This document shows, in pieces, positions 13,810 through 45,324 of a stretch of 64,000 nt of DNA. The stretch spans positions 357,864,001 to 357,928,000 of the forward strand of contig CM097882.1 in NCBI GenBank assembly GCA_044892505.1. Direction: 5' to 3'. A program made the translations under genes and the position numbers. This DNA is from Schmidtea nova (lineage: Eukaryota). Under the pieces are notes generated by a model. That model made no database searches and had not been told where the DNA came from. It saw nothing but the letters and a program-made list of their open reading frames with translations. The stretch's first letter is position 1. Each line of letters starts with the position of its first letter.

Positions 13810-13812
13810 CAA

Positions 13813-13823
13813 CTTCCCCCTTT
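13813..13823 (-). promoter_or_regulatory. Polypurine tract of gypsy B
   Basis: AAAGGGGGAAG on the minus strand, 3 nt before the 3' LTR start (TGTGATG). Confidence 0.85.
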
Positions 13824-14055: not shown

Positions 14056-17000
14056 TTAAAGCATTAGCTGTAATGTTTTTTCCTTGGGGTAGGCTGTGTG
14101 AGGCGTTGTGTGTAAATTTTGATTGTTGTAATGATAGGGTTTTAGTCTGCGGATGTTGACTCTAACTTTTCGGTTGTTTATCACTAATGTGCCCACGTTT
14201 TTGTCTAATTCGAGAAGTTTGTAAGGGCCTTCATATTTCGATTCGAAACCACTGGTAAAAGGTTTTTTATTAAAACCATATCGACCATTAAATTTGTTTT
14301 GGTTTGTTTGCTGTTATTGTCTATTGAGACTTCTTTTGGTTCATTTTGGGATGTTAGTGTTCTGTTCTTGTAAGTTTTATCAGGGTTTTTGTAGTTATCT
14401 ATTAAGTTTGGGAGGTTTGTTGAATGCCCGAAAGTTAATTGGCTTGGGCTTTTGTTGGTTAAGGATGAAGGGTTGTTTCGAAAACCAATTAGGATTTCTG
14501 GGAGTTTTTCTAACCAGTTTCTGTCATCGGCTTTAGTCCGAATCGCTTGTTTTAAAGATCTGTGCAATCTTTCCACTTTGCCGTTTGACTGGGGGTTATA
14601 GGCTGTTGTTCGGAATTTTTTTATTTTATATTTTGAGCAAAATCTTTTGAATAAGTCTGACTCGAATTGTCTGCCTTGATCACTGATAATTGTTTTTGGA
14701 CATCCGTATCTCGCAAACCAGTTTATTTCTAGTTTTCTGCAAATTGTTGCTGCTGAGATCTCTTTGATTGGGATTGCCTCAAACCAGTTGGTGTATCAGT
14801 CTATTATCGTCAATAGGTATTTGTGTTTGTTGTTAGGTGGTAATGGGCCCACTATGTCTATATGTATTGTTTGGAAAGGTTCTGTTTTTGGGAATTCAAT
14901 TTTTGTTGTTTTGAATTTTGTTGTTTTTTTGTTTTTCTGACAGTTTATACATGAGTTTACGTATTCTTTGATGTCCTTCCTCATGTTCGGCCATACCACT
15001 TTTGTATGCATAAGTTCGTATGTAGCTTTCGCTCCTGGGTGGTATATGTTGTGAAATTGTTTGATTAGTTCAGTTCTGTGTTCCTCAGGTACTATTAGTC
15101 TTATGTTGTTTTCGTTAGAGACATCGTACCAAATTCCATCAATCTCTTTTAGTATTAATGAGTTGAGTTTTGTGAAGTTATTTATTGTTCTTTCTTGTTT
15201 GTTTCTCATTGTTTCTTGATTCACTGTTGGAATCATGCTGATGGCGTTTGTTTCTGTTTCGATTCGCGAGAGGGTATCTGCACATATGTTTGCTGCTCCT
15301 GCTATATATTTTATTTCGCAATTGAATTGTGAAATGTAATTTAACTGTCTTATTTGCCTTGGTGATGGTAATTTCATGTTCATTGCGTTTACTAGGGGTT
15401 TGTGGTCTGTATACACTTCAAATTCTTTCCCTTCTAAGAGGTATTGATAGTGTTTTATTGTATCATGTACCGCCAACAGTTCCCTGTCAAAAGTGGAATA
15501 TCGCATTTGGTGAGTTTTGAGTTTTTTTGAGTAAAATGCGATGGGTTTTTTTTCGTTATGTTTTTCTTGGTATATTGTACCTCCCATTGCTGTTCCAGAG
15601 CAATCAGTGTTGAGGATGTATGTTAAGTTTGGGTCAGGGTAGTTTAATAGACTTGTGTTGGATAGGTTTGTTTTTGCCTTTTCAAAAACACTTTCTAGTT
15701 GTTTGTTCCAGTTGATTTTAATGTTTCTTTTGTTGGTGTTTAGGTCGTTTAGTGGTGCGAGTATCTCGCTGCACTTTGGGATGTGTTTGTGGTAAAAGTT
15801 TATCATTCCCATAAAACGACTTAATTCTCTTGTTGTTTTGGGGAGTGGGAAATCTTTGATGGCCTTTATTTTGTCGTCTAGAGGTCTTGTTCCATTTCCG
15901 TTAAGGATATGTCCCAAAAACTTGACTTCGTGTTTTAAGAATTCGCACTTCTTTATATTAATTTTGAGATCGTGGTTGTTGAGGGTGTTTAGAACTTCCG
16001 TGATGTCCTGCATATGTTCGGTTTTGTTTGTTGATGCGATTAGGATGTCGTCTAAATACGCTACCGTATTCCTGTGGTTTCTCAGAATTTGGTCCATGAA
16101 CCTTTGGAAAGTGGCGGCTGCGTTTTTTAAACCGAATGGCATTCGGTTGTATTCATATAACCCGATCGGTGTTATTATTGCAGTCTTTTTTACGTCTTCT
16201 TCACGCACCGGAATTTGGTGATACGCCTTTTGCAGGTCGATTTTACTGAAATATTTTGGATTATGTATCCTGTTTATGATGTCGTTGATTATATGTATAG
16301 GGTATTTGTCAGGTATTGTAATATTGTTCAAAGCTCTGTAATCTCCGCATGCTCTCCATTCGCCATTTGCTTTTTCTTTTAGCATCAGTGCGGATGACCA
16401 GTTGGAATTTGAATGTTGAATGATTCTGTTTTCCAGTAAATCGTCGAAGATTTCTTTGGTTATTGTGAGTTTTTGTTGTCCAGTTGTCTTACTTTGGCGT
16501 GGACAGGGTTACCATTTGTTATGATGGCGTGTTCTGTGATGCATTTATTTGTGGTTTCTATTGATAGTTTATCAGTGATTGTAGGGTAGTTTTTGAGTAA
16601 TTCTTTGATTTCTTTTGGTATGGAATTGTCTGCGTTTGTTTTTTCGCATTTTGTTATATTTTTAGTTTGTAATCCTTTAGTTTGTATTTTGGTTGTGTTT
16701 GCGGTTATTACCCCGATGTCACAATTTGTTAAGGTTTTTAAGTTTTCTTGGTTAGGTTTGTTGTTTGGGTATTTTTCTGTTTCGGAAGTATTTTGTATTA
16801 TTTTTTTATTTCGGCAGTCTACTAGCAAGTTATATTTCGCTAGGAAATCGGCTCCTACAATGGCCTGTTTCACGTCGGCGATGATGAATTCCCAATTGTA
16901 GTTTGTTTTGTTTATATTAATGGTTAGTTGCTGTTTGCCGTAGGTTTTGATGTTGCTGCCATTTGCTGCGCACAGGTTGTAGTTTCCTTCTTTTAAGGAT

Positions 17001-17212
17001 TGGTATAAATAACTTGGTAACAAACTAACTATTGAACCGGAGTCGACAAGGAAATTTATATTGTTGCTTTGCACCGTGAATGTTTCGTAGTCGCCAAATG
17101 TCGGTGCTGTCATTGGCGACTTTAATTGTTTTCCGGCTTCTTGTCGTGGAAAGTACAAGGTGCGTTGCACTTGAAAGCCTTGTCCCCAAATCTGTTGTGA
17201 AAATAACACCAA
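14056..17212 (-). pseudogene. gypsy B pol (protease, RT, RNase H, integrase), lightly damaged
   Basis: FLVDSGS, WRACGDYRALN, YLDDILI, TDCSGTAMGG, DTLSR, HxxxxH/CxxC zinc finger, IHIDIVGP, SDQGRQF and VERLHRSLK. Lesions: -1 nt in an A-run (16470-16474), CGA>TGA at 14796-14798 and -1 nt in an A-run (14263-14268). Confidence 0.95.
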
Positions 17213-18123
17213 TTTTCATTTGTTATGTAGTTGTTGTTTGTGTTATTGTATCGGTTCAAATTTGGTTTTTGCTCAGTGGGGTTGTTGTAGTTATTTTGGT
17301 AACGGTTAAAGTATGGGTTTTGTTCTGTACGGTTGTTTTGATTGAGCTGCTTTCTTTTCGTTTCTCTTTTTTGTGCCTCTTGTAAGTCGTTTCGGAGGTT
17401 CTTGTTTTCTATTAAGACCTCGTCGACTTTCTTTATTAACGAGTTAAGTAGAAGGTTGGTGTCGTTGTTATGGTTATCTCGTTTTTGGCAGTCTTCTTGC
17501 TTATTTTCCCATGGGTGCTATTTTCGGTATGTTTTGCAAACCGCTGGGAATAATTCATCATTTATTTTGTCCGCGATTTCGGCTACTTTGTCGAGGTCGG
17601 TGTTGTCATTTGCGGCTAAAATGCGTCTTATTTCTTGTGGCATAGCCCTCATGAATAGGTCCTTTACGAATTCGCTCGATTTCGAGCTTGTTATTTTGGG
17701 TTGTAGGAATTCCAGTTTTGTTTTAAGGTGCCTTAAAAATTCGCTAGGTTTGTCGTTTCCTAGCTGAATGTCTTTTAAGCAAGATTCTAGTATTTCTCTC
17801 CTGTTTATCTTATTTCTATTTAATAAGGTTGAGTACAGTGTTTCGAAAGGGTCATTATTTTTTTCTATTTCTTCTATTCTGTCGCCGATTTCGTTTAGTA
17901 TGTTGCTTGGCAATGCGGCGATTATGTGAGCGCATAGTGTTTTTGATGACTTGATCCCTGATAGAGTCAGTGTTAGCTTGGCGAACTCTAACCATTTTTG
18001 CGGGGTTCCGTTTTCATCGGTAAAAAAATTGGGGATGTTTGCCTTAGGGTTGATGATTGAGTTTATGGTGTTGTGGTCAAGTGGTGTTTGTGAATTGTTT
18101 GAGTTTGTTTGGTTTGATGCCAT
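17122..18123 (-). pseudogene. gypsy B gag with C-terminal CHCC motif
   Basis: Single frame of 334 codons with one internal TAG (17518-17520). Ends ...WCYFHNRFGDKAFKCNAPCTF (C-x2-H-x9-C-x3-C). pol overlaps in the -1 frame, with candidate slippery GGAAAAC at 17134-17128. Confidence 0.9.
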
Positions 18124-18298
18124 TTCTATATTCTTGCTGTTTGTTTATGTGAAGAAAAATGAAATTGGTTGAAGAATATAGCCTACTGTGTTCGGCTAAA
18201 AGAGTCAACTATCCTTTATAGCTCTATCTAATAGCTATTCTAAAAGGCTTAGTGATTGAAAAAACAATATTCGGCGATTGTGTGTTATGTTTTTTTTG

Positions 18299-18310
18299 CT
18301 TCTGACACCA
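18299..18310 (-). promoter_or_regulatory. Primer-binding site of gypsy B (tRNA-Leu(CAA)-like)
   Basis: TGGTGTCAGAAG is complementary to the 3' end of animal tRNA-Leu(CAA) (...CUUCUGACACCA) and lies 4 nt inside the 5' LTR. Confidence 0.8.
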
Positions 18311-18314
18311 GTTA

Positions 18315-19443
18315 TAAAAAGTAAGTTCTTTTATTAATTAGATTGCGGACGTGTATTTATGGATATGTATATTAGATATGTAATTGCTTTGTTATTTGTT
18401 TATGTTCTGTTCTATCACACTAGAAGAGTGTAAGTGCCCGAGAGAGTCTGGCGTTAACAGTGTACCGACACTCGGGGTGAATGTTTTGTAATGCTTGATG
18501 TTATGCAACAAAAATAAAAACAAAATGATGAAATTAAATAATTATTATGTATCAACACAATTATAACAACTTTCAATAAATTACTTCTATTTTTGTAAAT
18601 TCAGTAGTAGAATGGGATTTGTTAGAATAGGATTCGGCCTCAATACAGTTACTCAATAATTCAGCTCTTCGAGCAATATAATATTATTTACTGCTATTAT
18701 CAATCAGGATAAAAAGTTTTATTTTGGTTTTATCTTGGTTTATAAAACGCTAATTTACGGAAGGATAATTTGTTAGGATAGGATTCGGCCTCAATACAGT
18801 TACACAATAATTCAGATCTTCGAGCAATATAATATTATTCACTGCTATTAGCAATCAGGATAAAAAGTTTTATTTTGGTTTAATCTTGGTTTATAAAACG
18901 CTAATTTACGGGAGGATAATTTGTTAGGATAGGATTCGGCCACAATATAGTTACACAATAATTCAGATCTTCGAGCAATATGATATTATTCACTACTATT
19001 TTCCAACGGGATTTTCAGTTTTCTTGCGAGAATCTTCTTTTGTTATTCTTAATTTATTTTCAATATTTTCAAATTCTAATTCCTATAGTAATTCTGATTA
19101 TTACTATAGGAATTGATTATTTTGTTTTTTTTTAATTATTTAATTTTTGTTAAATTTTAATTATTATCTAAAGAGAAACTGGAAATGAAAAACGTTAAAA
19201 GTTATAGAGATGTTTTCAAACTCATTCGACGATTAATTATAATATAAAGGCCTAGTTTCCATTACTTACTAAACCTGCAAAAAAGGGGGGGGAAGTACAA
19301 AGCGCACCACCATGACGACAACAACAACGCATAGTCATAAAAATAATAGCAAAATTTACACCTATATCCGCATATATACAATCATTCTGTAAAATCATGA
19401 TCACACCAAATAACCATTGTTGACATTCTTCTCACGCATCACA
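18315..19443 (-). repeat. 5' LTR of gypsy B
   Basis: Near-identical to 12679-13809. Confidence 0.97.
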
Positions 19444-20396
19444 GGGAATATGCTTTTTGAAGTAATAATAGTCCCTATAAATTCGGATGAAGTAAGAGGA
19501 AAATCTGTTAAAGTCTTTACAGCATCGTTTAAGCTACAGCTTACAAATTGGCAAGAATCGATAAATTTAAAAGTTAAACTATCGACTCTTGCATATAAAG
19601 TCAAAAACATTTCACTTGTAGTAGGAATACAACTTATATCCCATTTAACGAATTTATTTAAACCATACTTGAGGATATGATGCAGATCATATCCACGTAA
19701 ATTATGAAATATGACTGGCATGATGAATCTTATTTGCCGAGAAAAATTACATTTAGAGCAAGCCGCACCCAAGTATTTACCTGTATAATGGTCATGATCT
19801 TTAACCGGATTTCTCAAAGGTTTATTACACAAATAACAAATTATAGAACTACGAAATGATCTTATTTGTGAAGTGGAAAGTTATTCCATTTTCTTTTTGG
19901 AATTATTTATAAAGTAAGGCAAAACTACTTTTTTTCCTATATCGTTGATTTCAGTCAAAAACTCTTCTACGCAGTTAAGACCATAAAAGCTTTTAAAAGA
20001 TTTTTCGCCAGTAAAGTTATTAATAAGCAACAAACCAGCAGAAATAGGCAAGTGGCGTTGAAAATACTTATCATCCTTGGGTAAAACAGCCTCAAAATCA
20101 GCATATACAACGAAAGGAGGGGTAACAATTTTTGACCAATCTTTAAATTCCAAGTTCTTATCTGAAGGCAAAGTGTACAAAGTTGTACCTAACTGGTTTT
20201 TTGTACATAAAGCCTGATGTTTCTCAAAAGCTTCAGTCAATCTAAAACCATTCAAGCAACGCTCACACCAAATGCATCTTATCCTGACATTGGTAACAGT
20301 AAGTTTGTCACAATTCAAAAGCCTATTAATATTGGTAACTCCTATATAATGAAAAGAGTCACTTTCCTCTAACAAAATCAAATTAATTGGAGTGCC
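19444..20396 (-). pseudogene. Maverick/Polinton polB copy 1, 5' part (exonuclease and endonuclease-VII-like insert)
   Basis: CIWCERCL, PFVVYADFEA, KDHDHYTGKYLGAACSKCN and VIFHNLRGYDLHHI. In-frame TAA at 19881-19883. The N-terminus is lost at a junction with the capsid gene. Confidence 0.95.
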
Positions 20397-20405
20397 CAAG
20401 TATTT

Positions 20406-21408
20406 ACAACCCAAGTATTTATTACCGGGTGTTAGTGCTCAAATTAAATTGACGAGATCAAATCCAGACAATAGTTTAACATACACAAAAGTTGAACCTA
20501 TAATTGAATTATTAGGGGGAAATTAATGGTTAGAAGAGTAAGAATTGAGCCATCTGTTTTGGCTGGGCATCAAATTGGACTTGGTACAAGAAATGCAATT
20601 TATCCAATAAGAAATAAGGAAGTTGTAGAATTTTCATTGCCAGTGGGTTCTTCGTCATTTTATAAATAACAAAATTTTGTTGATAGATCAAATTTTATTC
20701 TTGTAGCATTTTAATGAAATAAAAGACATGGCGGTTCATTTACCGAAACTTATTCTATTTACAATCATTTTAATGTAAAATCATTAAATTTAATTGATAA
20801 TTGAGGAAAATATTCGGAAAATCTTGAAAATGACAATTGCAGTACTAGTTATATGCAATCCATTGTCCGTAACCTTGGTTACCTGAATTAATGTATGAAT
20901 TGTGGTATTTCATTAGCCGATTGGAATCCAAAAAATCCATTTTCACCTTTGTTTTGGCTCCAAATTTTGATCTAAATCAAAGTCAATTACCCCAACAGGG
21001 TAATCTTAGACTTGATATTAAGTTTGGTACACCATTGACTGAATCAATTTCTGTAATTGTATATGGAATACATTAGAACCTCGATTTGCGTCGTTTCGAT
21101 TTGCGTTGTTTTCGAAGTTGCGTCGTTCTTGAATTTTTGTCATTTCAGAGTTTCGTCGTTAAAATTTTGGTTTGCGTCGCTTAAATTTTTTATAAATAGG
21201 ATGTTCCATTTAATTCTGATTTAATTAAATAGTTTTTGATACAAGGAATTGTTTTCTGTTAGTACTTATTAACAAAATATAGTAATACATACGTCAATAC
21301 TAAAAACTCGATTTGTGTCATCTTTTTCAAGTCCCAATTAACGACGCAAATCGAGGTTCCAGTGTATTTGAAAAAGAATTGCAAATTACATCTAATCGAC
21401 AATATTAG
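20406..21408 (+). pseudogene. Maverick/Polinton major capsid protein (double jelly-roll), C-terminal part
   Basis: QPKYLLPGVSAQIKLTRS...LMVRRVRIEPSVLAGH...AIYPIRNKEV...GNLRLDIKFGTPL..ISVIVYGI|FEKELQITSNR matches the Polinton MCP pattern. Several frameshifts, and split by a MITE. Confidence 0.85.
21071..21364. mobile_element. Tc1/mariner(pogo)-type MITE
   Basis: TIRs CA(T/C)T(A/G)GAACCTCGATTTGCGTCGTT with TA on both sides (21069-70, 21365-66). Excising it restores the MCP frame (YGI-FEKE). Confidence 0.9.
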
Positions 21409-22022: not shown

Positions 22023-22849
22023 CAGCGGCGGAACTACTGGACGCAGGACCCTGCGTTGCGGGGGGGCCTACCAGCTATAGGGGGCCCTCATATAAAAAAA
22101 ATTATACTCTCAATAATATTTATACTATAAAACTCTTTTCCGCAGGTATAGTGGGCCCTAAAATATAAAACTTGGATAAAAAAAATGTCATCCATCGTAT
22201 TAAAATATATTGTTCAAAAAATTATTTTTGTATTGGAGTGCGTAGTTTACATTTAAACGAAAAGTTTTAACCTTTTTAAAATTGCATACGCAATTGAGAA
22301 ATAAAGTACGATTATCAGCTGCGAACTGCCAGATTTTATGGTAAAGTCAATGCTACACGATGAAATATCAAAAATATCATCTATACGTGAATTGGCTGAC
22401 CTTTTAATAGTAAAATTGTCAACTATAGCTGCAAGCGTTCCACAAGTGATAACAGCATTGTTATTGTTTCTTACATTACCTGTTACTGTTGCATCAGCTG
22501 AACGTTCTTTTTCGAAACTTAAAATAATAAAAAATTATTTACGAAATACCATTGGTAAAGAATGTTTAAGCGACCTTGCAATACTTTCTATTGAGGCAAA
22601 AGCGGCTGGAAAAATGGAAATGAAAAACATCATTACCGATTTTGCCAATATGAAATCAAGAAGGAAAGATTTCACTATTTAAGTTCGGTTAAGTTTTAGT
22701 TTCGTTTTTAAGTTATCTTTATCTTTATTTAATTTTTTGTTTTTAAATATGATATATGAAATAAATATCTATTTAATATGTGAAGCTTTATTTTTTTTTA
22801 AAAAAACATTCTTTTGCGGGGGGGCCCAAATTTTGAAGTTCCGCCACTG
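22023..22849 (+). mobile_element. Non-autonomous hAT deletion derivative carrying the C-terminal dimerization domain
   Basis: TIRs CAG(C/T)GGCGGAACT and a perfect 8-bp TSD AATATAAG (22015-22022 and 22850-22857). ORF 22338-22682 has LTLPVTVASAERSFSKLKIIKNYLR...LAILSIE. Confidence 0.93.
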
Positions 22850-23277: not shown

Positions 23278-23828
23278 TAATTCTTTTATAATATTTTTAT
23301 TTATAGTGCATTATATCTGACATATTGTAATTCCTCAACTCATGATGAAAATTGTCACGAGTCGATGAAAATTTACAACTCCCACAAACATAACCACATA
23401 ACTTACCTAATTTGTACTTTCTGTAAAATATCTTCTGTTAGAGACTTTTATCGTATTCATAAGTTTCACTTGAATCAATTTCAGACATCGAANNNNNNNN
23501 NNNNNNNNNNNNNNNNNNNNNNNNNNNNNNNNNNNNNNNNNNNNNNNNNNNNNNNNNNNNNNNNNNNNNNNNNNNNNNNNNNNNNNNNNNNNNNNNNNNN
23601 NNNNNNNNNNNNNNNNNNNNNNNNNNNNNNNNNNNNNNNNNNNNNNNNNNNNNNNNNNNNNNNNNNNNNNNNNNNNNNNNNNNNNNNNNAAAAGAAAAAT
23701 ACAATCTGTGGTCCCACCCGAAATAAAATATTTAAATTAAATGAAATTTTCTCTAATTTTGTATTGACGCAGAGTTTGAAAAAGATGGTGAATTTATATT
23801 ATTTATCATTCCAAACTCTGTAAGATCA

Positions 23829-24850
23829 ATGAGTTATACCTTTTTAGATGAGGGTATATATCTTTTAAGTGAAAAAATAACTTTTATTAACGACAAAGGG
23901 AGTAACTGGGTCATTAACAAAGTTAAAGAAATTCATTTCGTTTTAACTAAATTTGCTAAAATTAGTAGTTTAAGTGGGCGTGGACATATTGAAACCCCTA
24001 AATCTTTACAACTAAAACATTTTACTGTAAACGTGAGAAAATTTGATGACTTATGTTTCATTTATAGCATTTTGGCTATTTTGAAATATGATGAGATAGA
24101 AAATAATAGAAATAGGGCAATTAATTATAATCTTTCTGATCTTGACTTTGATCCTACTGATTTTACGATATGACGTTGTAACACTCCCAAATTTGAGGCT
24201 AGATATCCTGGACTTGCTATTAATATTATTTCTTACAATGAGGATACTTTACTTGATACCTTGGCAAGCCTAGAAGTTTTTAAACATTCATGTGTTGGCG
24301 TTATTCATTGGTTGAAAGTTGTTGGTGGTACTCCAATCAATTTAATTTTGTTGGAAAGTGGTGATGCATATCATTATATTAAGGTCACCGATCTTGATAG
24401 GCTTTTGAATTTTGATTATCGTACAATTTCCAATACTCGCATTTAAAGTATATGGTGTCATCGATGCTTGAACGGATTTCGAAAAATGGAAGCATTCGAT
24501 TGTCATCAACCGTTGTGTGCTAAAAGTCAATTGAGTACAACTCTTTATACTTTATCTAGGAATAAATATTTGAAATTTAGCAATTGGGGCAAAACAATTA
24601 CCCCACTTTTTGTTGTTTACGTCGATTTTGAGGCAAATTTACCTGCTGATGATAAATATTTATAAATACATGTCCCAATATCTGCCGGTCTTTTATTTGT
24701 AAATAACTTTACTGGAGAAAATATTTACAAGAGTTTCCTAGGACTTGATTGTGTTTCTAAGTTTCTTTCTGAAATTAGTGATATTTCTAAAACTATTGTT
24801 TATCTCTTTTATAAAAATAATTTCAAGAAACTTCTTTTTATGATTGTGTC
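23829..24850 (+). pseudogene. Maverick/Polinton polB copy 3 (diverged subfamily), N-terminal portion only
   Basis: GSNWVINKV..., NVRKFDDLCFIYSILAIL, GTPINLILLE, WCHRCLNGF and PLFVVYVDFEA are colinear with copies 1 and 2. Many stops and frameshifts. Homology ends near 24850. Confidence 0.85.
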
Positions 24851-25411
24851 TCAAAAACAATGTTTTTCTCAGCGACTATTAGTTATCTATGTGTTGTGGC
24901 CATTGATGGGTTAAATTGAAGAAAACATGCTCTAGGGATGCCTCTATCCACAGCCAAACATAAAATGCTTACGTGACACACGAGCACCCTCGACTAGTTC
25001 CCTGGATAATCGAGTTGGAAATGTGCAAGGTGTTTGAACAATGATGGGTAGGTGAGCTCTATTTCTAGAACTACTCCCCATTTATGTTCGCGGGTTCATC
25101 GCGGCCGATAGAAGGACTTACGCTTTACTTTCATTTTACTTCATTTGCCAATTATCTTTCATTTTATTATTACTGCCCCCTTTACAATATCAACAAATAA
25201 TTATTATATATTGTACTTAAAATCTTAATGTTGATCGTTTCTTAAATTTTATGAATATCATTCTAACATAAATTATACTCGATTAATTCAGTTTGACATT
25301 TAATAAGTACTTTATTTTATTTTTTTACTACTTTACTTTACATAAAAAATTTAATACAAAAAAAAATAAACCTATATTTGTACAAACTAATAAGACCTTA
25401 ACTTCAGTAAT

Positions 25412-26024
25412 TTAATCAAAAAATTTCAAAAAATCTTCATCCAGTGTCATGAAATCTGTCGTCAGATCGATTTCTGGAATTTCATCATTGTGATGGATTA
25501 TCTGTTGAGCGAATTGTTTTTTCCATTTCCTTTGGCGTGAACCCATTTTGTTTTTCTTCTTTTTCTTAATTTCAACTGCTGATGAGTTATTTGCAACTGG
25601 TACTGTTGTTGTTATAACCTCAGGGGTTTGCGATGACCCTTCGGTATTAGTTCCAATAGAGCATCCGGCTTTTTCTTCCGACCAGCGCTGATAAGTGACT
25701 GGTCGTATTAGATCCTTTAGCTCAGTGTCAATGAAAGACGATGTAACTGAGCGCAGACATTTTCTCAATTCAATTTTCGTTGCTTCGAGCTCGATGCGGT
25801 ACTCTTCACTGGCTCGTTGGGCGCGTTTGATTTTTTATAAGTTGACTTTTCATCTGTTTTGGACTAAACCAGATTTTACGAAGATGTGAATTTGTTGTTT
25901 CAGAACTTTTTAGCTTTTCTTTGGTTAGACGGATTTCCTTCTCTAGGCTGCGAATGATTCGCCAAGCCTTATTTAGTTCAGTTTGCGAGCTTGAGTTATT
26001 TGACGACATAGTTCTGAAAATCAA
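25412..26024 (-). pseudogene. ~200-aa coiled-coil protein with basic patch (KKKKKNK), one frameshift
   Basis: ORFs 25806-26024 and 25412-25768 join if one A is removed from the run at 25831-25836 (LIK-IKRAQRASEEYRIELEATKIELRKC). No recognised domain. Confidence 0.6.
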
Positions 26025-26774
26025 TAGTTATTATTTCTTGATTACTTTAAACTTCACATTTACTGATTGATAAATGAATGTTGCTAAGATTTCTTTATGA
26101 ATTACTTTAACTCGATAATACATCTTATAACCCCGACAGACTTCATGCCATTGTTTAAATGGCGATACCCTTCAAATTTACGAAATTATTATATGGAAAG
26201 TTGGAAATGAAGAAGGAAAATAGACATAAAATAATTCTTTAAACACGGTCGCTATGTACAGCGATCAGATTAATTTATTCAGTTTTATTTAGACCTGTGC
26301 TATCTACAACAATCAGGTTAATATACTTTACAAATTTAGTTCTACTGCCCTATATACAGGGATCAGGATATTAAATTCATTCATATTTAAATCTTTCGTC
26401 GTCTACTCATCAACCGTTCAGCTGTTTGTGCTTGATCGTATGTTCGCTACAGTGTGAAGCCTACACTGATTTGCTCGTTATGCTACGCATACGCCAACCT
26501 GATGTTGAGAAAATTAAATTCAAAAATCAATACTAAATGTATAAACTCTGATTTGGAAATATCGACTATTATGATCTATTTGTACGGAGTCTACTACTCT
26601 TTATCGTTATCTACTCTCCTATGGTAGGAAAATGCAAGGTATCTCGAACCTATTTAGGCCACTCATAATACTGTAGAAATGTCGTATCGGCTGAGCTTCA
26701 AAACTACCCAATGTGGTTTATCCTGGTGAAGATTATTGAAGTAGGCATCTCTTGACTTCGTGGATGTGGGTCTC

Positions 26775-27507
26775 AAACATACATTTTGTAATCGCTGTTA
26801 TCTCATGAATTTTTTGAAACATTCATTAGGCCTATTTTATTAAGATCACTGAAATGTTTGCACTCCCGTGTGTCAAACTCCATGATACCTATGGAAAGAA
26901 AATCGTCGAAGCCAAATCCTTCAAGTTTTGCATACCTCCAGAACTTGACATGGTCTGTGAAAAAATCATCTGGTTCCTATCAGTTAACAATGGTATTCAA
27001 AACCACGATTTGTCTCAATCATGGAAACAGCTAGTAGTTACTATTCTCTTTCTATTGGTTAACAGTCCTAAGTTAGCTATTTCTTTTAGTATTCTACGTC
27101 GTAAGAAAATCAACATCACCCTCATGCGCCAAATCTCCGATGCACCATCAAGAAAAAACCCACTGTGTTGTTTGAAATCAATCTTCTGTGTTTGAAATCA
27201 ACAATAAAGTTTATTTATTGCTTTGTTAATCTCATCGTATCAAATTATTTAATAATATAAAGATACTAACTGGTTGACTATACTTGCCAGCAATAATTTC
27301 CTGATCATAAAATTCCCTACCGTACTTGTGGCAATCAACATACTACAAGAATGGCCAACCTTCCACACGGCAGCTGGGCTACCTCTACGAAGGCCGCCTC
27401 CTTCCACCGATTACACAGTGAAAGGAGCACAAGCTAATTATATATTATCAAAATCATGCATCTACATAAAAATAATCTCAAAATTTATATAACAATTTAT
27501 TGAGCAT
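26775..27507 (-). pseudogene. Possible decayed F-box-like ORF
   Basis: With frameshifts and stops the minus strand gives MLNKLLYK/EIIFM.MHDFDNI.L/LLSLCNRWKEAA, resembling L..LP.EIL..IF.YL...L..VCKRW. Protein-like open stretches follow downstream. Very degraded. Confidence 0.3.
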
Positions 27508-28105
27508 TTAAATAATTGAAAGAAATCATGACAACATAAATAAAATTAAAAATCATCCATACCTTTCTCAAAGTTCAATTAGCAAATGATAAAAATTTTC
27601 TCAAATAAAATCATAAACCTTAAAATGGTTCAATTTTGATTCAGTATTTATACTGGATCAGCGATTATGCCAACCAATCAGCATCAAGCTGTTGGTCGTA
27701 ATACCAATTTATTTATACTTATTTATAAAAATTCCTTGTTTTAATTAACTTGAAATTTTCTTATTTAATTTCTTATTTAACTATTTATTGTAGTTAATAA
27801 ATATATTTTATTATATCTCTACTTTTAAATTCCATTTTTTCGTTATATTTTAATATATCATACTTATTTTTTTAATTATTTTTATTCCACTATTTATTTT
27901 ATTTCTATTCATTCTAATACTTGCATTTAAATTTTCTTCTGATGGTATTTGTTATACTTTGTTTATTTTAATTTTATCTATTATTATTTATTTGTTCAAA
28001 TGGTGGGCCCAACAACATTCTGGGACCCCTAAAATTGCGTCCCGCAATTAATTATACAATATTACTTATATCAACATACATAAAAAGTTCTAAAGATTCA
28101 CATAA

Positions 28106-28407
28106 GGGATCGTCCATAAAGTACGTACGCCAAAAAATCGTAAATGCTACCCCCTCCCTCCCTCGTGTTGCAGTGTGTACTTTTTCGGCCCCCTACCCCC
28201 CGGTACATACAACAATCAAGATTCTAAGTTTTTAAAAACCGAAATTTTCTTTTAACCATTATTTTTTAATCGAATCACATTATACTCTGCGGCTATATTT
28301 ACTAGTTTTGTATTTATTTACCGTGTTTTACCCCCATACATACCAATACGCTTTTGGCCTGACACCCCCCTACCCCCTAAGTGCGTACATACTTTATGAA
28401 CGGCCCC
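28106..28407. mobile_element. PIF/Harbinger-type MITE
   Basis: TIRs GGG(A/G)(T/C)CGT(C/T)CATAAAGTA(C/T)GTACGC with a TAA TSD at 28103-05 and 28408-10. Confidence 0.88.
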
Positions 28408-28514
28408 TAAGGTGATTTATTCTACCCATAATCATATAAAAAATTTTTAAAATATAATTTTTAAAATATAATTAAAAGATAATTGTCAACCAAGTGTTTT
28501 TGATAAGTAAGTAA

Positions 28515-29111
28515 TTAAAGTTTATACAGATATTTCATAGCTCGCACTGAATTGGGTTGGTTCTCTGGGATTGCTGGTAGTTCGTATTGAGTTCGCATTC
28601 TGTTGAGGTGATTTCTAATTTGTCTTCGGGCTTTGTCATCATGTGCTGTTGTTTGATTGATGATAGATTGTTTTCGCTTGAGGGTTTTTATTCTGTACGA
28701 AGCGATAAGAATGGTGATTGCGCTGGTGGTCGTACTGATTGTTAATACGATTATGATGGCGACGATCCATCTCTCTTGATACTGGATTTCTGCTCGATGC
28801 AGACTCTTTATGGTTTCTCTATCTTCTTTCAGAATCTTTCGAATTTTCTCTAATTTGTTGTTAATCTTGCAAAGGGTTTGTTGCGTTGATAGTGGGTTAG
28901 GTGCTGTTGATAGTTGGATTTGAGAAATCTCTTTAGCTGTTTCTTTTAGCAGACGGTTTATTTCTTGATAAATTTTATCGGGTAAAACTTGTAGATTTTC
29001 TTTTGATATTTGAATGTCTTCTCTTTGTAGGGTGATTTTGATTATATTTAGGATTTTCAGGATTGCGAGCTTCTTCCTTTTCTTTACATATTTGTCAATA
29101 CAGTTTGACAT
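28515..29111 (-). CDS. 198-aa coiled-coil protein with one predicted transmembrane helix
   Basis: Intact intronless ORF. The hydrophobic segment WIVAIIIVLTISTTTSAITILIASY is followed by basic RIKTLKRK. It starts 18 bp after the stop of the upstream ORF. Confidence 0.7.
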   Translation of the reverse strand: MSNCIDKYVKKRKKLAILKILNIIKITLQREDIQISKENLQVLPDKIYQEINRLLKETAKEISQIQLSTAPNPLSTQQTLCKINNKLEKIRKILKEDRETIKSLHRAEIQYQERWIVAIIIVLTISTTTSAITILIASYRIKTLKRKQSIINQTTAHDDKARRQIRNHLNRMRTQYELPAIPENQPNSVRAMKYLYKL

Positions 29112-29129
29112 TATTATTTTACAACATAT

Positions 29130-29543
29130 TTACAAAGATTTTCGCGCTTCTTTTTTAACTAGCGACTCGTTGGGTTCGTGAAAACCTTCATCTTGAGGTT
29201 CCCCTTGATTCGTAGGGAGTGGTAACCACACTATCGTGTTTCTCCACATGGTTACTTCGTCTCGATATAGGTGCGATATTTGAATTTCTTCATCTAACAG
29301 GTATTCCAAATAATTTGATTGTTCTGTCAACGTTTCTATCTGCTTTTCTAATTCTGTTATTTTGACTTTTCTCTCTTCCTCTTCCATCATTTTGATTGCT
29401 GCTGTGGTGATGTCTGTTTCTTTTGGTGGTGTTATCAATTTTTGTTTCAACTCTTCATTTTCCTATGTTAAATTTACCAAATTTTCCTCGTAGCTCTGCT
29501 TCCTCTTGCTACGCCGACCATCCTTTTCTATCGGCTTTCTCAT
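29130..29543 (-). pseudogene. Basic plus coiled-coil (bZIP-like) protein with one in-frame stop
   Basis: ATG at 29543: MRKPIEKDGRRSKRKQSYEENLVNLT*ENEELKQKL..., then open to 29130. Overlaps the end of the MATH ORF. Confidence 0.55.
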
Positions 29544-30119
29544 TCCTTTCCATTTCTATGTATTAGGTGTCCTCATACAATAATCCCCATATCTTCTTTC
29601 GTGATACAAAATATGGCTCTCCACTTTCTAATCCGCATTCTTCTGTTGGTCTGTTGCTCGTATCTTCTCCTCTATCTGTCGTGAATCTCTTTTCTATGGT
29701 TTCTTTTAAACTCTTGGTTCTTATAGTCGCCCCACTCCTATTGGCCATTCGATTAGATCATCATATTCTCCTTTGCAAAACGCGAAAAATATTGATACGT
29801 GTTTTCCATGACCTTTTCCATCTCCGTTCGGGTATAGTTTCAATCTCACTTTAGCCCCGCTTTTCCATAAGTAAAATGGTGGGCTTATTACCGCGACTTG
29901 CTTAAAACTTCGTGCATCTGCTAATTTGTCTCGATAATCCGTTATTTTCCATACATATGGTGCTACTGGTAAATCTTTTCGCTCGTCGATTTCTCGTAAT
30001 AATTTGTTATATTGCACTTTCATTCCTTTTGCCAATTCTTCGATGGCTATTATTTTTCCTTCCATCTTTTCTCGAGTTAATTCGAATTGTTCTCTGGTCT
30101 CTAATAATAAGTTAATCAT
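29509..30119 (-). pseudogene. Coiled-coil plus TRAF-C (MATH) domain protein, intronless, no RING or zinc fingers
   Basis: YVWKITDY...SPPFY...KVRLKLYPNGDGKGHGKHVSIFF...GEYDDLIEWP, then after a frameshift RPTEE..ESGEPYFVS....EDT*YIE. This is the TRAF-family MATH signature. Confidence 0.88.
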
Positions 30120-30372
30120 TCATTTATATAAATTTTTAAGATTTATGCAAAAATAGACAAAATAAAATACTTTCAATATCTGAAAATTTAATTGAAAATC
30201 CTTAAAATTTTATCAATCAAATCTGGTTTAAATATATCATTAATAACTTGTAAAATGATATTTTAGTGTTACTATTTAAATTAAATTCATTGTTAAAATT
30301 TTAAAATTTATTATATTATTTAATAAATCTAAACTATATATTATCAAATTGAATAATTCTTTTTGAAAATAG

Positions 30373-30796
30373 GAACAAAATCTCGAATGCCACGAACAAT
30401 GTTGCTATTGTGGACAAAATACTATTAAAGAATGCAGTGGATGCGGATGGGCATTTTATTGCAGGTTTGTTAATGTTAATATAAATTAGAAAAAACTCGT
30501 TTTTAATCGCGATAAATAGTCGAGAATGCCAAGAAAAGCACTGGTGCATTCATAGGTTTTTCTGTCAGCAAGGATATGAAAGAGAATTTCCTAAATTGGA
30601 AGGAATGAATATCGTTCCATGTAAGGATTCCCAGATCCAGAAGCGACAAATGGTAGTGGAAGAATGCATAGGGAAAAGTTCTGGACCACCTTGTTGTGCT
30701 ATTTGTGCTGACATCCCCAGCCTGGTCCGATTAGCGAGATTTGCTGGAATGTTGATTTGCACCGATTGCGTTGAGATTCAAGGGTCGATGAATTAG
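30373..30796 (+). CDS. MYND-type zinc-finger protein (exons 30373-30464 and 30520-30796; 5' exon not found) with extra C-terminal C4 motif
   Basis: Removing a 55-bp GT-AG intron (30465-30519) gives CCYCGQNTIKECSGCGWAFYCSRECQEKHWCIHRFFC, the canonical C-x2-C-x7-C-x2-C-x5-C-x3-C-x7-H-x3-C. The frame stays open to CAIC...ICTDC and TAG. Confidence 0.88.
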
Positions 30797-31399
30797 ATTT
30801 CCATTGAAATTATTTGTGTTTTCATTCGGAAAAAAATTAGATTTAATTAAATTTTTTTTCTCAACTGTAATTGAAATAATTTGATTTCAAAATTTATAAG
30901 GTCTTTTGCACCGGTATTGCATTTGGGATTTGTATAATTGAGTCCTATTTAATGAGTTATTTATTGTGTTTTACTAATTTAATGAACTTTCTAACCCCAA
31001 CATTTTCAACTAGCGGGTCACTCATATTAAACCGTGCAATAATGCTGCTGTTTATTTGTGTTCTGGCTTATGGAACACGTTTAAATGATTCAATGACATC
31101 GCGCAATTGAAAAGTAATTTTTAAGGTGATTTAGGATTATTTATTTGATTTACACCATTGCCCGCGTTTATGATTTGTTAAATTGGAGCCATTTTTAGTT
31201 TTTTAATTGTTTTTTCATTAATTTGATGAACATTTTAATCCAATAGTTACAGTTATTAAGTTGCGGGGCGTATGTTGGCGGGAATTTGTTGAGTTCCGTG
31301 AGTCACCTGTAAAAGTCTATTTTGCGGTGGTTCGGGGTTTATAATATGGAAATATGTTCTCGTTTGTACGGTTATTATAAAAAGTAAATTAAAAAGCAG

Positions 31400-34300
31400 T
31401 AGCTAGTTATGTGGACTACACAGCAAAACATTAAATGCAAAATATTGCAATGTCAATGTAAAAAATACCGATAATTTGTGTTTTATATATAGTATTTTGG
31501 CTATTTTAAAATACGATGAGATAGATAACAATCATAGAATCTAATTATAATCTCTCAGACCTTGTTTTTGATCCTTCTGATCCAATGAAATTATGTAATA
31601 TTCTCAAATTTGAATAAAAAAACCCCGGGCTGTCAATAAATATGATGAAAGCAATTTAATCGATTGCTTTGAAAAGAATGAAGTATTGAAACATCCATTT
31701 GTAGATATTATTCATAGGTCAAAGATTTTAGGTGGCACTCCAATTAATTTGATATTGTTAGAGGAAAGAGACTCTTTTCATTATAAAAGAGTTACCAATC
31801 TTAATATGCTTTTGAATTGTGAAACTCTTTCTGTTACGGATGTCCTGATAAGATGTAATTGGTGCGAGCGTTGCTTGAATAGTTTTAGATTCACTGAAGC
31901 TTTTGAGAAATACCAGTCTTTATGCACAAAAAATCAGTTAGGTACAACTATGTATGTGGTGCGGTCAAAAAGTTACCGGCCTACCCTACTTAACAAATTG
32001 ATTTTTTAATGGAAATAGGTTTATTTTATTGGAAATTTATTGACAATTTAATGTTGAAAATCTTATTGACCTAATCCATTTACTTTATCTGTTGCAGATG
32101 GAAATGTCGTTGCAAGTGCATTCGCTGGAAAAAATTGAGTATCGCAGTGCTATTCGCTTTTGTGTTCTTCTCAGCCAAACCAACCAGGAAATCATGGCAA
32201 ATCTGAATCGAGCCTATGGCAAAAAGTGTCCCTCTCAGTCTACCATCAAGTTTTGGATTGCTGAATTCAAACGGAGTCGGCAAAGTGTGTCAGATGAGGA
32301 ACGAGAGGGTCGACCAACGACTTCGAGAAATGAAGATGTGAAGGAAAAATTGGAGAAAATGGTACTGGAAGATCGCCGTATAACTAACCTTCACTTAACC
32401 TTCAGATAAGAACTTGGAATTTACAGATTGGTCTAGGATTGTTACCCTTCATTTCGTTGTATATGTCGATTTTGAGGCTGTTTTACCAGTAGATTATAAG
32501 TATTTTTCAACTTCACTTGCCTATTTCTGCTGGCTTGTTGCTAATCAACAACATTGCTGGTGAAAAATCATATAAAGGCTTTTATGGTCTTAACTGTGTA
32601 GAAGAATTTTTGACTGAAATCAATAATATAGGTAAAAAAGTAGTTTTACCTTACTTTATAAATAATTCCAAAATGAAAATGGAACATCTTTCCCCTGCAA
32701 AAATTAGATCGTTTCTTAGTTCTACAATTTGTTATTTGTGTAATAAATCTTTGAAGAATCCGGTTAAAGATCATGACCATTATACAGGTAAATACTTGGG
32801 TGCAGCTTGCTCTAAATACAATTTTTCTCGGCAAATTAGATTCATCATGCCTGTAATTTTTCATAATTTACGTAGATATGATTTATATCATATCCTCAAA
32901 TATAGTTTAAATAAATTTCCAAGTAGGAATATAAGTTGTATTCCTACTACAAGTGAAAAGCTTTTGACTTTATATGCAAGAGTCGATAGTTTAACTATTA
33001 AATTTATCGATTCTTGCCAATTTGTAAGCTCCAGCTTAAACGATGCTGTAAAGACTTTAACAGATTTTCCTCTTACTTCATCCGAATTTATTGAGACTAT
33101 TATTACTTCCAATGCGATATTCCCATATAATTTTGCAACCTTTTTAGAGGTTTTACAAAATACATACGAGTTGCCACCGACTTGGGAGGGAGTTACACTC
33201 GACGAGTATGAAAAAGCTCAACATATATGGAATGAATTTAATTGTGACACATTGTTTGATTATATGATGTTATACCTGAAATTGGATGTTTTCTTACTTG
33301 CTGACTATTTTCAGCAATTTAGGGCAAAATCCATTGCACAACCGATTTGAACCTCTTAATTCTTTTGGGAATTCCAGGCATGTCGTGGAATTCCGCTTTG
33401 ATGACTTTGATATCTCCTATCGAATTGCTTCAAGATATGGATATGTATAATTTTTTCGAAGGGAGGATCCGTGGTTGATTAACATTTGTTAATAAACACC
33501 CTGTAGTATCCTCCGACGATATTGAGCTTTTTTATATAGATATAAATAATTTATATGGGTGGGCCTTTAGCCAAAGACTGCCTTATAAAGAATTTAAATG
33601 GGTAACTGATAGGGAAAATTTAAATAAAATAATTTATTACTGTGAATCTGCTGATTTAGAAGTATTAATTTATGGCCAACTTTCAAAAGGACTTTCGAAA
33701 TTGACGATGACTTGCTTGCCGTCTTGCTGAATAAGGAATCGGTGTGTTTGGATAGACTCAGCTACATTGGTCACACTGTACTGGATCTATCTAAACTTAG
33801 AATGTTCCAGCTACAGTATGAAGAGTTGCAAAAATATCGTTACGACTTCAATTGTGAAATTAACATCGTTGCTGGGGATACTGATTCGTTCTTTCTTGAA
33901 GTTAGAAATTGTAAGCTTGATATTCTTTTACCGGCCATGATAAGAGATAACTTGTTTGGCACTTCTAATTATGATCCCAATCACTCTTTATACAGTAGGA
34001 ACCTTGATTCTGTCATTTGTAAGTTCAAAGACGAGAATAAAAGGCTTAAGTACCAGGAGTGGTTATTTCTTAGACCTAAATGTTATAGTATTTTAGGTGA
34101 TGACAAAACTAATAAAGCTAAGGGGGTAACATTGGAGGGTACTGACATAAAGTATCAGTCGTACTTGGATTGTTTTAATAATAACCAAATATTTTCTGTT
34201 CCCCAAACCAGAATCACGAGTAAAAATCATCAACCATTCACTATTAAAAATGAAAAGACTGCACTGACAAACGCAGATGATAAAAGGAAATGGGTAGCAA

Positions 34301-34434
34301 AAAATAAAAGCTTGGCATATGGCCATTATATAGGAGGTGACTTGGTTATATTTCAACACACCGATCCAAGCATCAATACATATCAACGATTTCAAGATTC
34401 AACTGAAAATATCCATGATAACAGTTTTATTTAA
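31400..34434 (+). pseudogene. Maverick/Polinton polB copy 2 (close to copy 1, inverted orientation), with mariner insertion and ~410-bp internal deletion
   Basis: Roughly 90% identical to copy 1 by eye. Motifs ADFE-like, DHDHYTG, DINNLYG and AGDTDS. The deletion junction at about 33674 removes the KLMNNSLYGK motif. 3' flank homology to copy 1 extends to about 35555. Confidence 0.95.
31955..32391 (+). mobile_element. 5' fragment of a mariner transposon (HTH region of transposase)
   Basis: TA followed by TGTGGTGCGGTCAAAAAGTTACCGG. ORF 32092-32385 reads EKIEYRSAIRF...CPSQSTIKFWIAEFKRSRQSVSDEEREGRP...LEDRRIT. No right TIR. Confidence 0.9.
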
Positions 34435-35001
34435 ATAAAATTTGTTGAAAACTTTAGTTGTTATTGTTTTTTATTTATTTAATTATTCATTTTATATTGT
34501 ACAGATTAGTTTCAGTCTGTTTTTTTATCAGTCAGTCTTATATATTATAGATGTTTTTGTCTATTTTTAAAATTTTGTATTAATTTCAAGAAACTATGGT
34601 TAAATCATAATAAAAAAAAAATAAATAAATAAGTAATAAAATAAGTAATAAATATTTAGTTTAATATTTATCGTAATTATACATGTTATTTTTTTGTTGT
34701 GCCGAGTCGTCTCATTTGTTTTTATTTGTTTGTAATATTTTGATAAGTGTTTTCAGTGAACANNNNNNNNNNNNNNNNNNNNNNNNNNNNNNNNNNNNNN
34801 NNNNNNNNNNNNNNNNNNNNNNNNNNNNNNNNNNNNNNNNNNNNNNNNNNNNNNNNNNNNNNNNNNNNNNNNNNNNNNNNNNNNNNNNNNNNNNNNNNNN
34901 NNNNNNNNNNNNNNNNNNNNNNNNNNNNNNNNNNNNNNNNNNNNNNNNNNNNTTTCACCTTTGATATTTTTTTATCATTATTATCAATAATTCTCATAAT
35001 G

Positions 35002-41059: not shown

Positions 41060-41913
41060 TTCCCCTTCATTTTGGAGCGTATGAAATATTAAGTCGGATT
41101 CACCTCGCGAGAGGTGACAATAAAAAAGCCAGTCAAGTATTTCTACTTTGGAGATTAGAAATCAATTATTTTGCATATTTTAGTTTTATTTTACATCTGC
41201 AATGTGCGATCCGAAAAATTCTGAGAAATGGCTTCTTTGTATAGAAAACACTGAAGGTCTAGAAGGACTAGAAAAAGCTATCCAGTTAACGAAACTGGCC
41301 ATGAATCGCTGTAATACAATAGATATAAGAGAAAAATTGGCAGAATTGCTAGAGAAAGGTGGATATGAGAAAGAGGCAATGAAAAGAAAACTCGCGAATT
41401 TCGAAATGGCTGCCAGTGAAAAAAATCCAACTGTCATTAGTGATATTGTTGAAGAATTATTTTATATGTCGGAAAAGTTTTACGTACGTAAAGATGTCAA
41501 GCGATCGTGCAAATGTCTAGAAATAGTAAATATTAAATATCCGACTCTAGTCACGGATGAGCAGAGATTTAGTCTCCTCAAGCAAATGTTTAGTGTGAAT
41601 AGATTTCACGGCATATTAGATGTGGTGAAAAATATCAAAGGAATTGAAATCGATCTGAATTATCCCGCTAATTTATTATCATTTAATTCGGAAATTTCTC
41701 ATGAAAATCAAAAACAAATAATTTTCTACGTGCTCTTCGCTTCGATACACCTGGAAATGATAGTATTTATCGAAAGCCCATCGTTCTTTTTATATATGAA
41801 AGATATCATCAATGAAGCCGATTGGTATTTGACTATTTGTCATAAACTATATAATATGAAACATTATAAAATCGCAATGAATCTTCTAGAAAATCCTGGA
41901 GGCATTGTTGACG
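41060..41913 (+). CDS. GTF3C3: GTF3C3 exons 5-6 (41060-41136; 41184 into N-gap), TPR region
   Basis: FPLHFGAYEILSRIHLARGDNKKASQ|FYFTSAMCDPKNSEKW matches P...P..TL..IY...GD.EK..QF.LIAAHL.P.D.E.W. The intron is 47-bp GT-AG. The exon end is hidden by gaps. Confidence 0.85.
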
Positions 41914-42312
41914 NNNNNNNNNNNNNNNNNNNNNNNNNNNNNNNNNNNNNNNNNNNNNNNNNNNNNNNNNNNNNNNNNNNNNNNNNNNNNNNNNNNNNNN
42001 NNNNNNNNNNNNNNNNNNNNNNNNNNNNNNNNNNNNNNNNNNNNNNNNNNNNNNNNNNNNNNNNNNNNNNNNNNNNNNNNNNNNNNNNNNNNNNNNNNNN
42101 NNNNNNNNAACAATATAATAATGGTATTAANNNNNNNNNNNNNNNNNNNNNNNNNNNNNNNNNNNNNNNNNNNNNNNNNNNNNNNNNNNNNNNNNNNNNN
42201 NNNNNNNNNNNNNNNNNNNNNNNNNNNNNNNNNNNNNNNNNNNNNNNNNNNNNNNNNNAATATTATAATGGTATTAATAATATTATAATATTAATATTAT
42301 TAATAATTATAT

Positions 42313-42343
<31 letters not shown>

Positions 42344-43398
42344 TGTAATAATATTAATAATAATTATTAACAACTTAATTATATTAACACCTAACATCCA
42401 CCTTTTTTAATTTTTCATTTTCTTGATATTTCATTATTATGTATTTGCCTTCTTCATCTCTTAACAAATAGATTTTTTATTTCGGATCTTACGCTTTAAT
42501 AATACTTTATCCATACATTGAAATTTCTTTTTGTTTCCGCCTATTTTGCATTCGGTACTTCTCTTTACTTTTTTGAAGTAATGCTGTACCATTTCGATTT
42601 GTTGATTATCCTGCCAAAAATGATTTCTGTCCGACTTACCCAATTTTTTTCCTGAATGGTAATATCTATGCCCAACCTTTTCTGATTTGTTCTCTTAACG
42701 ACGAAACTACCTTTTTATTAATTCATTGGTGTTATGGTGATATGTACTTGAAAACATTATTTCTATTCTTATTGACAGCCAATTATTTTATACCGTTTCA
42801 CAATTTACATATAATTCTTTCGGTGCTCCTAATCTCAATATCCATTTTTAGCATAATTTTAAATTTTTTCATCCTATTTAGCTATCTCAGACATAAATGT
42901 ATATGCTGTAGTAGTCGATGATACCAAATATGTAACTTTCTCTATTTACTGTTTCTTTCCTTTGTTCACATATATCCATATAGATCTTCTTCTATCTTAA
43001 TAGTAAGTGTCTACGTTTTTGCAGTATAGATTTTAATTACTAATTTTACTAAATCTTCTATGTCGATATTATATTGAATGTTTTAAAAGATTCTCATATA
43101 TTGCTATAATTTCATAATTATATATTACTTATTTTTAATAGTAGAATAATATTAACTAAAATTACTTTAAATTAATTTCATATTTTAATTTGCTATAATT
43201 ATTTTTCTATGGACATTTAAAAAAATATTTTTAGTAATAATAGTTTCCAAGTTTTGGTTGTCGTAAAATGTCGTTCGTGTCTAATTATTACGATATAAAT
43301 GTAATTTTACATTAGTAATTTTCTGCATGAATTTAAAGACTATATTATTTCATGTCCATGATTTTCAGTGAGTTTTAGCATGTTTTAATATTTTCTAG

Positions 43399-44321
43399 AA
43401 ATTAGCCTCCTTGAAACTGTTGGGAAAATGTCAAGAAGCGATGGGCTTCGATAATGAGGCGTTGTGTACATATGATAATATCATAAATAATGTAACTGGA
43501 CAGGATGCGTCTATTTGGGAATTGAAAGCAAATTTGTTGTATAGATTAAAACGAGAAGACGATGCAATTCAAGTTTTAGCTGAAAGTCAAAAATTCATAT
43601 ACATAAATTTACCTCAAACTAATCTTGTCAATCGATGTAAGCCCACTAAGGATAGCATTCAATTACTTTATAAACTCTGTAATTTACTCTACAATGAAAA
43701 GCGGTTCGAAGACTTTATAAAAGTCTCATGGAAGTTTCTTTTCATTGATTCCTATGAATATTTCCAAGCAAATAAAATTGACATGTGTTGCGAAGACATA
43801 GCGTTTGCTAAATCGAGAATTCCAGAAATTCAAAACAACATATGGCTGTGTCTATCAAAAACTCTTGATTCTAATGGTCATTGTGTTTTTGCTACGACTC
43901 ACTTGAAAATGGGCGATGGATCTACATGGGATATATTGAAAAAATTGATGGATCTCTTTTACAAATCGGAAGAAGATTGTTCAGAGTTACTTGAACTGTT
44001 GTCCCAGTGGGGATTGGTTTTACAGAAAATCCTCAGCTGGCAATCAAATATTCGATTGAATCTATCAGTCATCTATGTGTCAACGGCATTGAGGAATCGA
44101 ATAAAAAACATTCGGTTAAGACTAGATATTTCCGGAAATATGATTTTTCAGGAGTTGAGAGTTCTTAAAAATAAGGTAGTTATCATTCCATCCGCTACAA
44201 GATTTAACGCATTCTACCGTTACAGTATGGAGAGAATATTCAATTTTGGAACCTATTCCATATTTATACATATATTATTGGCGTCAGCAACGAAAGATTT
44301 GTCCTTCGACATTTGCCAATT
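43399..44321 (+). CDS. GTF3C3: GTF3C3 large internal exon
   Basis: Acceptor ttctag at 43398 and donor gtgagt at 44322. About 307 open codons of TPR-like helices, consistent with the GTF3C3 middle region. Confidence 0.8.
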
Positions 44322-45235: not shown

Positions 45236-45324
45236 TAATTTTACTAAGGTTAATATAAATTTTATTGGATTGTGCGAATGTGATTATGTAATCACTAAAG
45301 GATCATTTTTTTATATTCAATTTG

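Follow-up and report, generated by a model that had tools for sequence, protein, structure and literature searches.

How did a TRAF coiled coil and MATH domain come to lie among dead transposons, and what element, if any, carried it there? We examined this in a 64-kb window (the whole stretch of DNA analysed), in which a first-pass annotation had seen an intronless, RING-less TRAF gene, possibly an immune decoy carried by a mobile element. The coiled coil and MATH domain, on the minus strand at 30119-29509, are real. In our reading, to which we give a probability of about 0.5, they are what is left of an accessory gene, now dead and truncated at its 5' end, that belonged to a reverse-transcribed element, probably a Burro-like Gypsy of a planarian-type host. 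The TRAF piece and its 5' border comprise:

29724..30119, minus strand: coiled coil and first half of the MATH domain, a 132-aa ORF identified by Pfam, PDB and alignment to the protein P0033
29509..29739, minus strand: second half of the MATH domain in a different frame, identified by a profile match, with a tail resembling that of P0033
30101..30170, minus strand: AT-rich segment containing both ATGs considered as starts, GC about 13%, no skew, starting with GT (30170) and ending in TTAG (30101)

The 132-aa ORF matched the Pfam families MATH_2 (E 2e-16, profile positions 2-69 of 136) and TRAF-mep_MATH (E 4.5e-14), and a PDB search with it returned TRAF1-6 chains (28 sequences, best E 2.6e-17). 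It stops at 29721-29723, just beyond a frameshift near 29730-29745; the switch of frame in the similarity comes after a conserved WP motif. The second half (reading frame 29739-29512, with an internal stop at 29563-29565 and a terminal stop at 29509-29511) had no Pfam match alone and was recovered at E 8.6e-6 by a profile of 12 aligned sequences. Cysteine-protease PDB matches of this half alone (E 0.07 or worse) were taken as chance. Pfam, PDB and profile matches therefore bear out the initial description of a coiled coil and TRAF-type MATH domain with one frameshift and one stop, the typical order of the family now lying in two broken pieces. The claim that there are no introns holds for 30119-29742, where the alignment to P0033 is ungapped. 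Likewise, the absence of RING and zinc fingers extends to the entire window: a tblastn search with 172 TRAF relatives placed 370 HSPs in the MATH region, and of 330 elsewhere the best had E 0.033. Either natural loss or truncation may explain the missing RING.

The start of the gene had been placed at an ATG (30123) within TATATAAATG, which sits at 30130-30121. This is wrong, as that ATG is out of frame and reads M-N-D-stop; the in-frame ATG is at 30119. A TATA-ATG start was rejected on account of this reading and of the chance-level frequency of the motif (one match in the window vs. 0.89 expected, and at least one in 62 of 100 shuffles). A change-point fit placed the end of coding-like composition at 30101/30102 (interval 30100-30106), past which lie 270 bp of 13% GC without strand skew. 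The break falls on TTAG, an acceptor-like YAG, with a GT 70 nt upstream. Both ATGs lie on its AT-rich side, so a natural RING-less start is unproven. The segment 30101..30170 is a candidate 70-nt intron or simply a truncation junction, and tblastn with the 172 relatives found no upstream TRAF exon to go with it in the 64-kb window. The ORF may be truncated, a last exon, or one with a natural AT-rich start. That it was ever a MATH-only gene is unproven: the coding-like DNA ends at a YAG, which fits truncation or a last exon.

A search of 1.84 billion representative proteins yielded 2665 at E 0.001 or better, and identity was nowhere above 53% among the 150 matches listed; a word-index homolog search matched one of nine candidates. 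The best full-length single-domain match, P0033 (UPI0006060D85), is a 469-aa protein with a RING-like Cys pattern, zinc fingers, coiled coil and MATH domain. It aligns without gaps from the first residue of the query over 126 residues (36% identity), and the C-terminal tails are similar. The similarity also extends, gapless, six codons beyond the AG at 30101, although such AT-rich codons match easily. Over 147 MATH columns P0033 is 33% identical to the query, no closer than conventional TRAFs (31-35% for most). Also among the best matches is Dugesia japonica TRAF2-like A (P0038; 37% over 125 aa), which by eye shares a zinc-finger insertion with several divergent matches. From these sequences, of which one bears a species name, the nearest relatives of the TRAF piece look planarian. 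Together with the AT richness and short introns of the DNA, this suggests a planarian-type host.

In a tree of 21 hand-picked rows, the query stood with nine divergent TRAFs (including the named D. japonica protein) apart from eleven conventional animal TRAFs at 95.7/93, a split that could be due to long branches. Quick trees covered 112 of 172 relatives and 31 chosen rows, the latter grouping the query with P0135/P0152 and not with P0033. The AU test rejected neither of these two groupings (0.52 and 0.34), and it rejected the query as sister of D. japonica TRAF2-like A (AU 0.027, 5000 replicates). Viral contigs contained no match to the query, PolB or P0033, which is weak evidence since Maverick-type PolB itself was unmatched there too; one viral-contig match was spurious, a phage tail-like gene. 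Among 103 stretches of metagenome contigs there were three weak loci, and locus L001 had no TRAF gene.

We also mapped by eye the receptor-binding residues of TRAF2, as given in the available part of PMC6125299. The triad of serines has given way to E-D-T in the query, F456 to S, C469 to E and R393 to K, with F410, F447 and Y395 kept; the signature of TRAF1/2/3/5-type receptor binders (serine triad, hydrophobic pocket, R393/Y395) is thus not found. P0033 and P0117 also lack the triad, so its loss looks like subfamily divergence and not decay. Since the triad is not kept, a decoy for canonical Px(Q/E)E receptor tails appears unlikely from the sequence. For S. mediterranea, the accessible text of PMC13563047 reports that no clear homologs of NF-kB and MYD88 turned up, a point of weight only with a planarian host. 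The first-pass view of a RING-less dominant-negative NF-kB decoy is therefore unsupported: a natural start is not demonstrated, the query has lost the triad, and P0033, its best full-length match, carries zinc fingers and a RING-like Cys pattern. Today, the piece is predicted to form at most half a MATH domain (half a beta-sandwich) and to be inert.

Dead elements are piled up in the window: three decayed Maverick-type PolB copies, Gypsy, and hAT, mariner and DDE_1 pieces. The TRAF piece lies between PolB copies B and C:

10691-20438: PolB copy A, decayed Maverick-type, truncated, with a Gypsy inserted
23757..24890, plus strand: PolB copy B, decayed, truncated, resembling copies A and C at about 69%
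31425..34760, plus strand: PolB copy C, protein-primed Maverick-type, decayed, with a mariner fragment inside near 31955-32391
30373..30796, plus strand: spliced Cys/His gene, apparently unbroken, with a 55-nt GT-AG intron (30465-30519) and a further CxxC pair

A single PolB split by the TRAF block was rejected, as copies B and C overlap in homology. Of the Maverick set of PolB, integrase, ATPase, protease and capsid, PolB debris and one capsid-like piece were seen; the TRAF gene is not bracketed by long repeats, and the corresponding flanks of copies A and B have been deleted or fall within an N gap. The capsid-like piece (20401-21076, plus strand), which we take to resemble the C-terminal half of the Maverick major capsid protein, is frameshifted and has no Pfam match. 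It abuts the truncated PolB A on the opposite strand, suggesting an internal Maverick deletion. The Cys/His gene lies about 600 bp upstream of PolB C and, on the opposite strand, upstream of TRAF. Its first exon was not found and its separate exons have no Pfam match; a presumably MYND-like finger runs across the intron. As putative Maverick cargo, this gene would be a likelier candidate than TRAF.

The Gypsy within copy A (12678-19443) has 1132-bp LTRs that are 99.2% identical, in each of which a 151-bp repeat occurs 2.5 times. Its insertion left a target duplication of 5-6 bp, and its gag, protease, RT, RNase H and integrase are in separate frames. A second, older Gypsy remnant (7650-10360, minus strand) is 72-74% alike to the first and has its own polypurine-tract-like run. 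Elsewhere in the window are a hAT dimerisation fragment (22305-22679), a DDE_1 transposase fragment (50505-51143), a small element with 44-nt inverted ends (21052-21383), a 272-bp tandem array (45316-46731, 4.8 copies) and a ~350-bp dispersed repeat present three times (37670/55026/61245). A putative host gene (41184-44325, plus strand) is represented by two long frames split by N gaps, with a helical-repeat look, no Pfam match above cut-off and none of 927 homolog candidates matched.

The codon bias of the TRAF piece is Gypsy-like and unlike that of the Maverick, which makes a reverse-transcribed carrier likelier than the adjacent Maverick. At fourfold-degenerate sites A:T was 39:4 for MATH and 89:21 for MATH plus ORF2, the gene overlapping its stop. 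The window Gypsy has a similarly A-rich sense strand (213:58; Fisher p 0.07 vs. MATH and 0.68 vs. MATH plus ORF2), a likeness that supports, without defining, a Burro-like origin of the TRAF piece. In contrast, the counts were 168:328 in the Maverick PolB/capsid-like genes (p 1e-13 and 1e-19, respectively), a difference that speaks against Maverick cargo, and 57:46 in the putative host gene (p 2e-5 and 6e-5), a host baseline that consists of this single gene, itself without matched homologs. A/(A+T) was 0.30-0.34 in all three PolB copies, opposite to the TRAF piece, 0.39-0.58 in DNA-transposon ORFs and only 0.61 in the second Gypsy remnant. The TRAF bias was kept within codon boxes, A exceeding T in seven of eight with one tie. 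With the local Gypsy as control, we infer that the A bias reflects reverse transcription. Carriage by a mobile element, as originally proposed, is thus plausible, but the bias is that of a reverse-transcribed element and not of the adjacent Maverick. An A-codon amino-acid index was 0.61 for the query, 0.63-0.66 for the window Gypsy, 0.46-0.53 for PolB and 0.71 for P0033, the highest of 174 relatives (mean 0.51, sd 0.045). P0033 may perhaps be retroelement-borne itself, and amino acids as A-codon-biased as those of Gypsy proteins make carriage of a complete RING-TRAF by retroelements conceivable.

Downstream of the MATH domain the block continues with further decayed pieces:

28515..29543, minus strand: ORF2, a decayed 342-codon gene overlapping the TRAF stop, recognised by its 2 stops relative to shuffles
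28098..28415, no strand: MITE-like insertion with 33-bp inverted ends (82% alike)
25412..26027, minus strand: ORF3, frameshifted, likely a coiled-coil remnant, with a moderate A/(A+T) of 0.63-0.67
25173..25183, minus strand: polypurine-tract-like run, similar to the one that precedes the 3' LTR in the window Gypsy

ORF2 has two stops (29463-29465 and 29130-29132), whereas 5000 shuffles averaged 23 and never had fewer than 9. The product is predicted to be helical, with a basic patch after its one predicted membrane helix (28710-28766), and a single-sequence fold of part of it was helical (pLDDT 51). ORF2 matched no Pfam family, and a protein atlas held no usable match for part of ORF2 or for ORF3; the sole look-alike of ORF2 was a viral haemagglutinin fragment (0.77, under the useful level of the tool). 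ORF3 may belong with the TRAF block. An 8-mer of the polypurine-tract-like run occurs five times in the window, three of them on the minus strand, and no LTR pair matching the run was found. There is no 3' UTR between the TRAF stop and ORF2. A processed pseudogene of a stand-alone TRAF mRNA was rejected, since ORF2 follows directly and poly(A) was not seen.

Burro/GYPSM1 Gypsy elements of planarians encode Smc and MATH_TRAF_C together with BIR, BCL2-like and env regions; in Dugesia tigrina the Burro MATH is on a separate upstream accessory ORF, and D. japonica has decayed Burro fragments (PMC6431247). Planarian piRNA targets include both Burro and Polintons, according to the available part of PMC8532177. 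If the TRAF piece derives from such an element, the parent gene would have encoded RING and zinc fingers, as in P0033. Long residence in an element copied through RNA would have produced the A bias, and rearrangement among dead transposons would have left the piece beside unrelated Maverick debris. In the parent element, the product would have been a TRAF adaptor, probably with RING, that tuned host stress or cell-death signalling in element-expressing cells. Such a role would fit the BIR and BCL2-like cargo reported for Burro, with partners other than Px(Q/E)E receptor tails.

Pfam found no gag, RT, integrase, BIR, BCL2 or env above cut-off in 24880-31450 (56 of 75 stop-free frames scanned, of 30-32 aa or more), and paired LTRs around the TRAF block were not found, only the polypurine-tract-like run, an absence expected for a fragment. 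A search among proteins of 822-2345 aa matched 3 of 4199 candidates, none with RT, and a scan of 18 long or neighbouring protein matches revealed no retroelement domains. We consider it an even bet that the piece works like cargo of the Burro kind. We do not file it as a Burro member, as LTRs and gag-pol were not found and the likeness considered is one of domain content. A broader proposal, which we regard as doubtful, is that a planarian retroelement lineage carried full RING-TRAF ubiquitin-ligase genes of the P0033 type, that part of the planarian TRAF expansion is retroelement cargo steering host stress or death signalling, and that the TRAF piece is a fossil of it.

Three other origins were weighed against the retroelement reading. 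The piece could be the last exon or a decayed duplicate of a host TRAF of a planarian-type expansion, once an ordinary RING-TRAF adaptor, with its upstream exons lost or outside the window. We judge this unlikely. In its favour, a break exactly at TTAG with a GT 70 nt upstream suits a spliced gene, the neighbouring Cys/His gene has a 55-nt intron, S. mediterranea has 121 MATH domains (PMC6109357, in the part available), and most planarian TRAF-like transcripts are partial or without RING and zinc fingers (PMC7586133, likewise in part). However, the putative host gene has an A:T of 57:46, compared with 39:4 here, the TRAF stop lies within ORF2, no upstream exon was found in 64 kb, and the P0033 similarity runs six codons past the AG without a gap, even if AT-rich codons match easily. 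If instead some different agent copied through RNA, such as a non-LTR element or an endogenised RNA virus, had captured TRAF beside a membrane-protein gene, its relic would share the A bias and the compact overlapping ORFs, and would agree with the LTR pair not found and the sub-threshold haemagglutinin look-alike of ORF2. We think this quite improbable, as there is no RdRp, RT or endonuclease match nearby and the literature search gave no TRAF-carrying case of this sort, whereas Burro provides one.

Similarly improbable, and if anything slightly more so, is the original proposal of a naturally RING-less TRAF carried by a Maverick as a dominant-negative decoy of receptor-to-NF-kB signalling. 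In its favour, PolB copy C lies some 1.3 kb away in head-to-head orientation, with one small gene in between, and TRAF has an in-frame ATG at 30119. [quoted passage not shown] The synonymous bias, however, is opposite to that of all three PolB copies (0.30-0.34; p 1e-13), the ATG originally quoted is out of frame, and the triad (E-D-T), F456, C469 and R393 are all changed. Viral contigs without a related locus add little to this, since PolB matched none either. The locus serves as a warning that closeness to a Maverick polymerase does not amount to Maverick cargo, and offers the lead that the planarian TRAF expansion is possibly in part retroelement-derived, which can be approached through codon bias and linkage.

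Planarian retrotransposons with TRAF cargo have been described before (PMC6431247), and the present case is a dead fragment. That review was the only source for Burro with TRAF in a literature search without the primary Burro paper and Repbase. For animal Mavericks the search yielded no paper describing TRAF cargo, and the available portions of PMC11410931, PMC13238120 and 10.1101/2025.03.14.642691 do not mention TRAF cargo. The TRAF piece resembles Burro/GYPSM1, the dugesiid giant Gypsy, in joining a coiled coil (Smc) to MATH_TRAF_C, and decay of Burro through stops and frameshifts is known. Unlike Burro, it has no gag-pol, LTR pair, or ubiquitin-like, BCL2, BIR or env match, and the gene after MATH encodes a predicted helical membrane protein without family assignment. 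Planarian MATH genes are strongly expanded and often without RING or zinc fingers, as described in the accessible parts of PMC6109357 and PMC7586133. The query shares with this TRAF-like family a divergent MATH domain of TRAF2/3/5 type but is broken, A-biased and overlapped by ORF2. Vertebrate TRAF1 and RING-deleted TRAF2 likewise consist of coiled coil and MATH without RING (PMC7586133, PMC6125299 and PMC2194023, each as far as available). However, they keep the receptor-binding hot spots, whereas here the triad is lost and the absence of RING may be truncation. Finally, the viral TRAF of a fish iridovirus, ISKNV ORF111L, is alike in being a TRAF captured by a virus, but according to the available text of PMC3352826 it is intact, keeps its RING, binds TRADD and promotes caspase-8 apoptosis.
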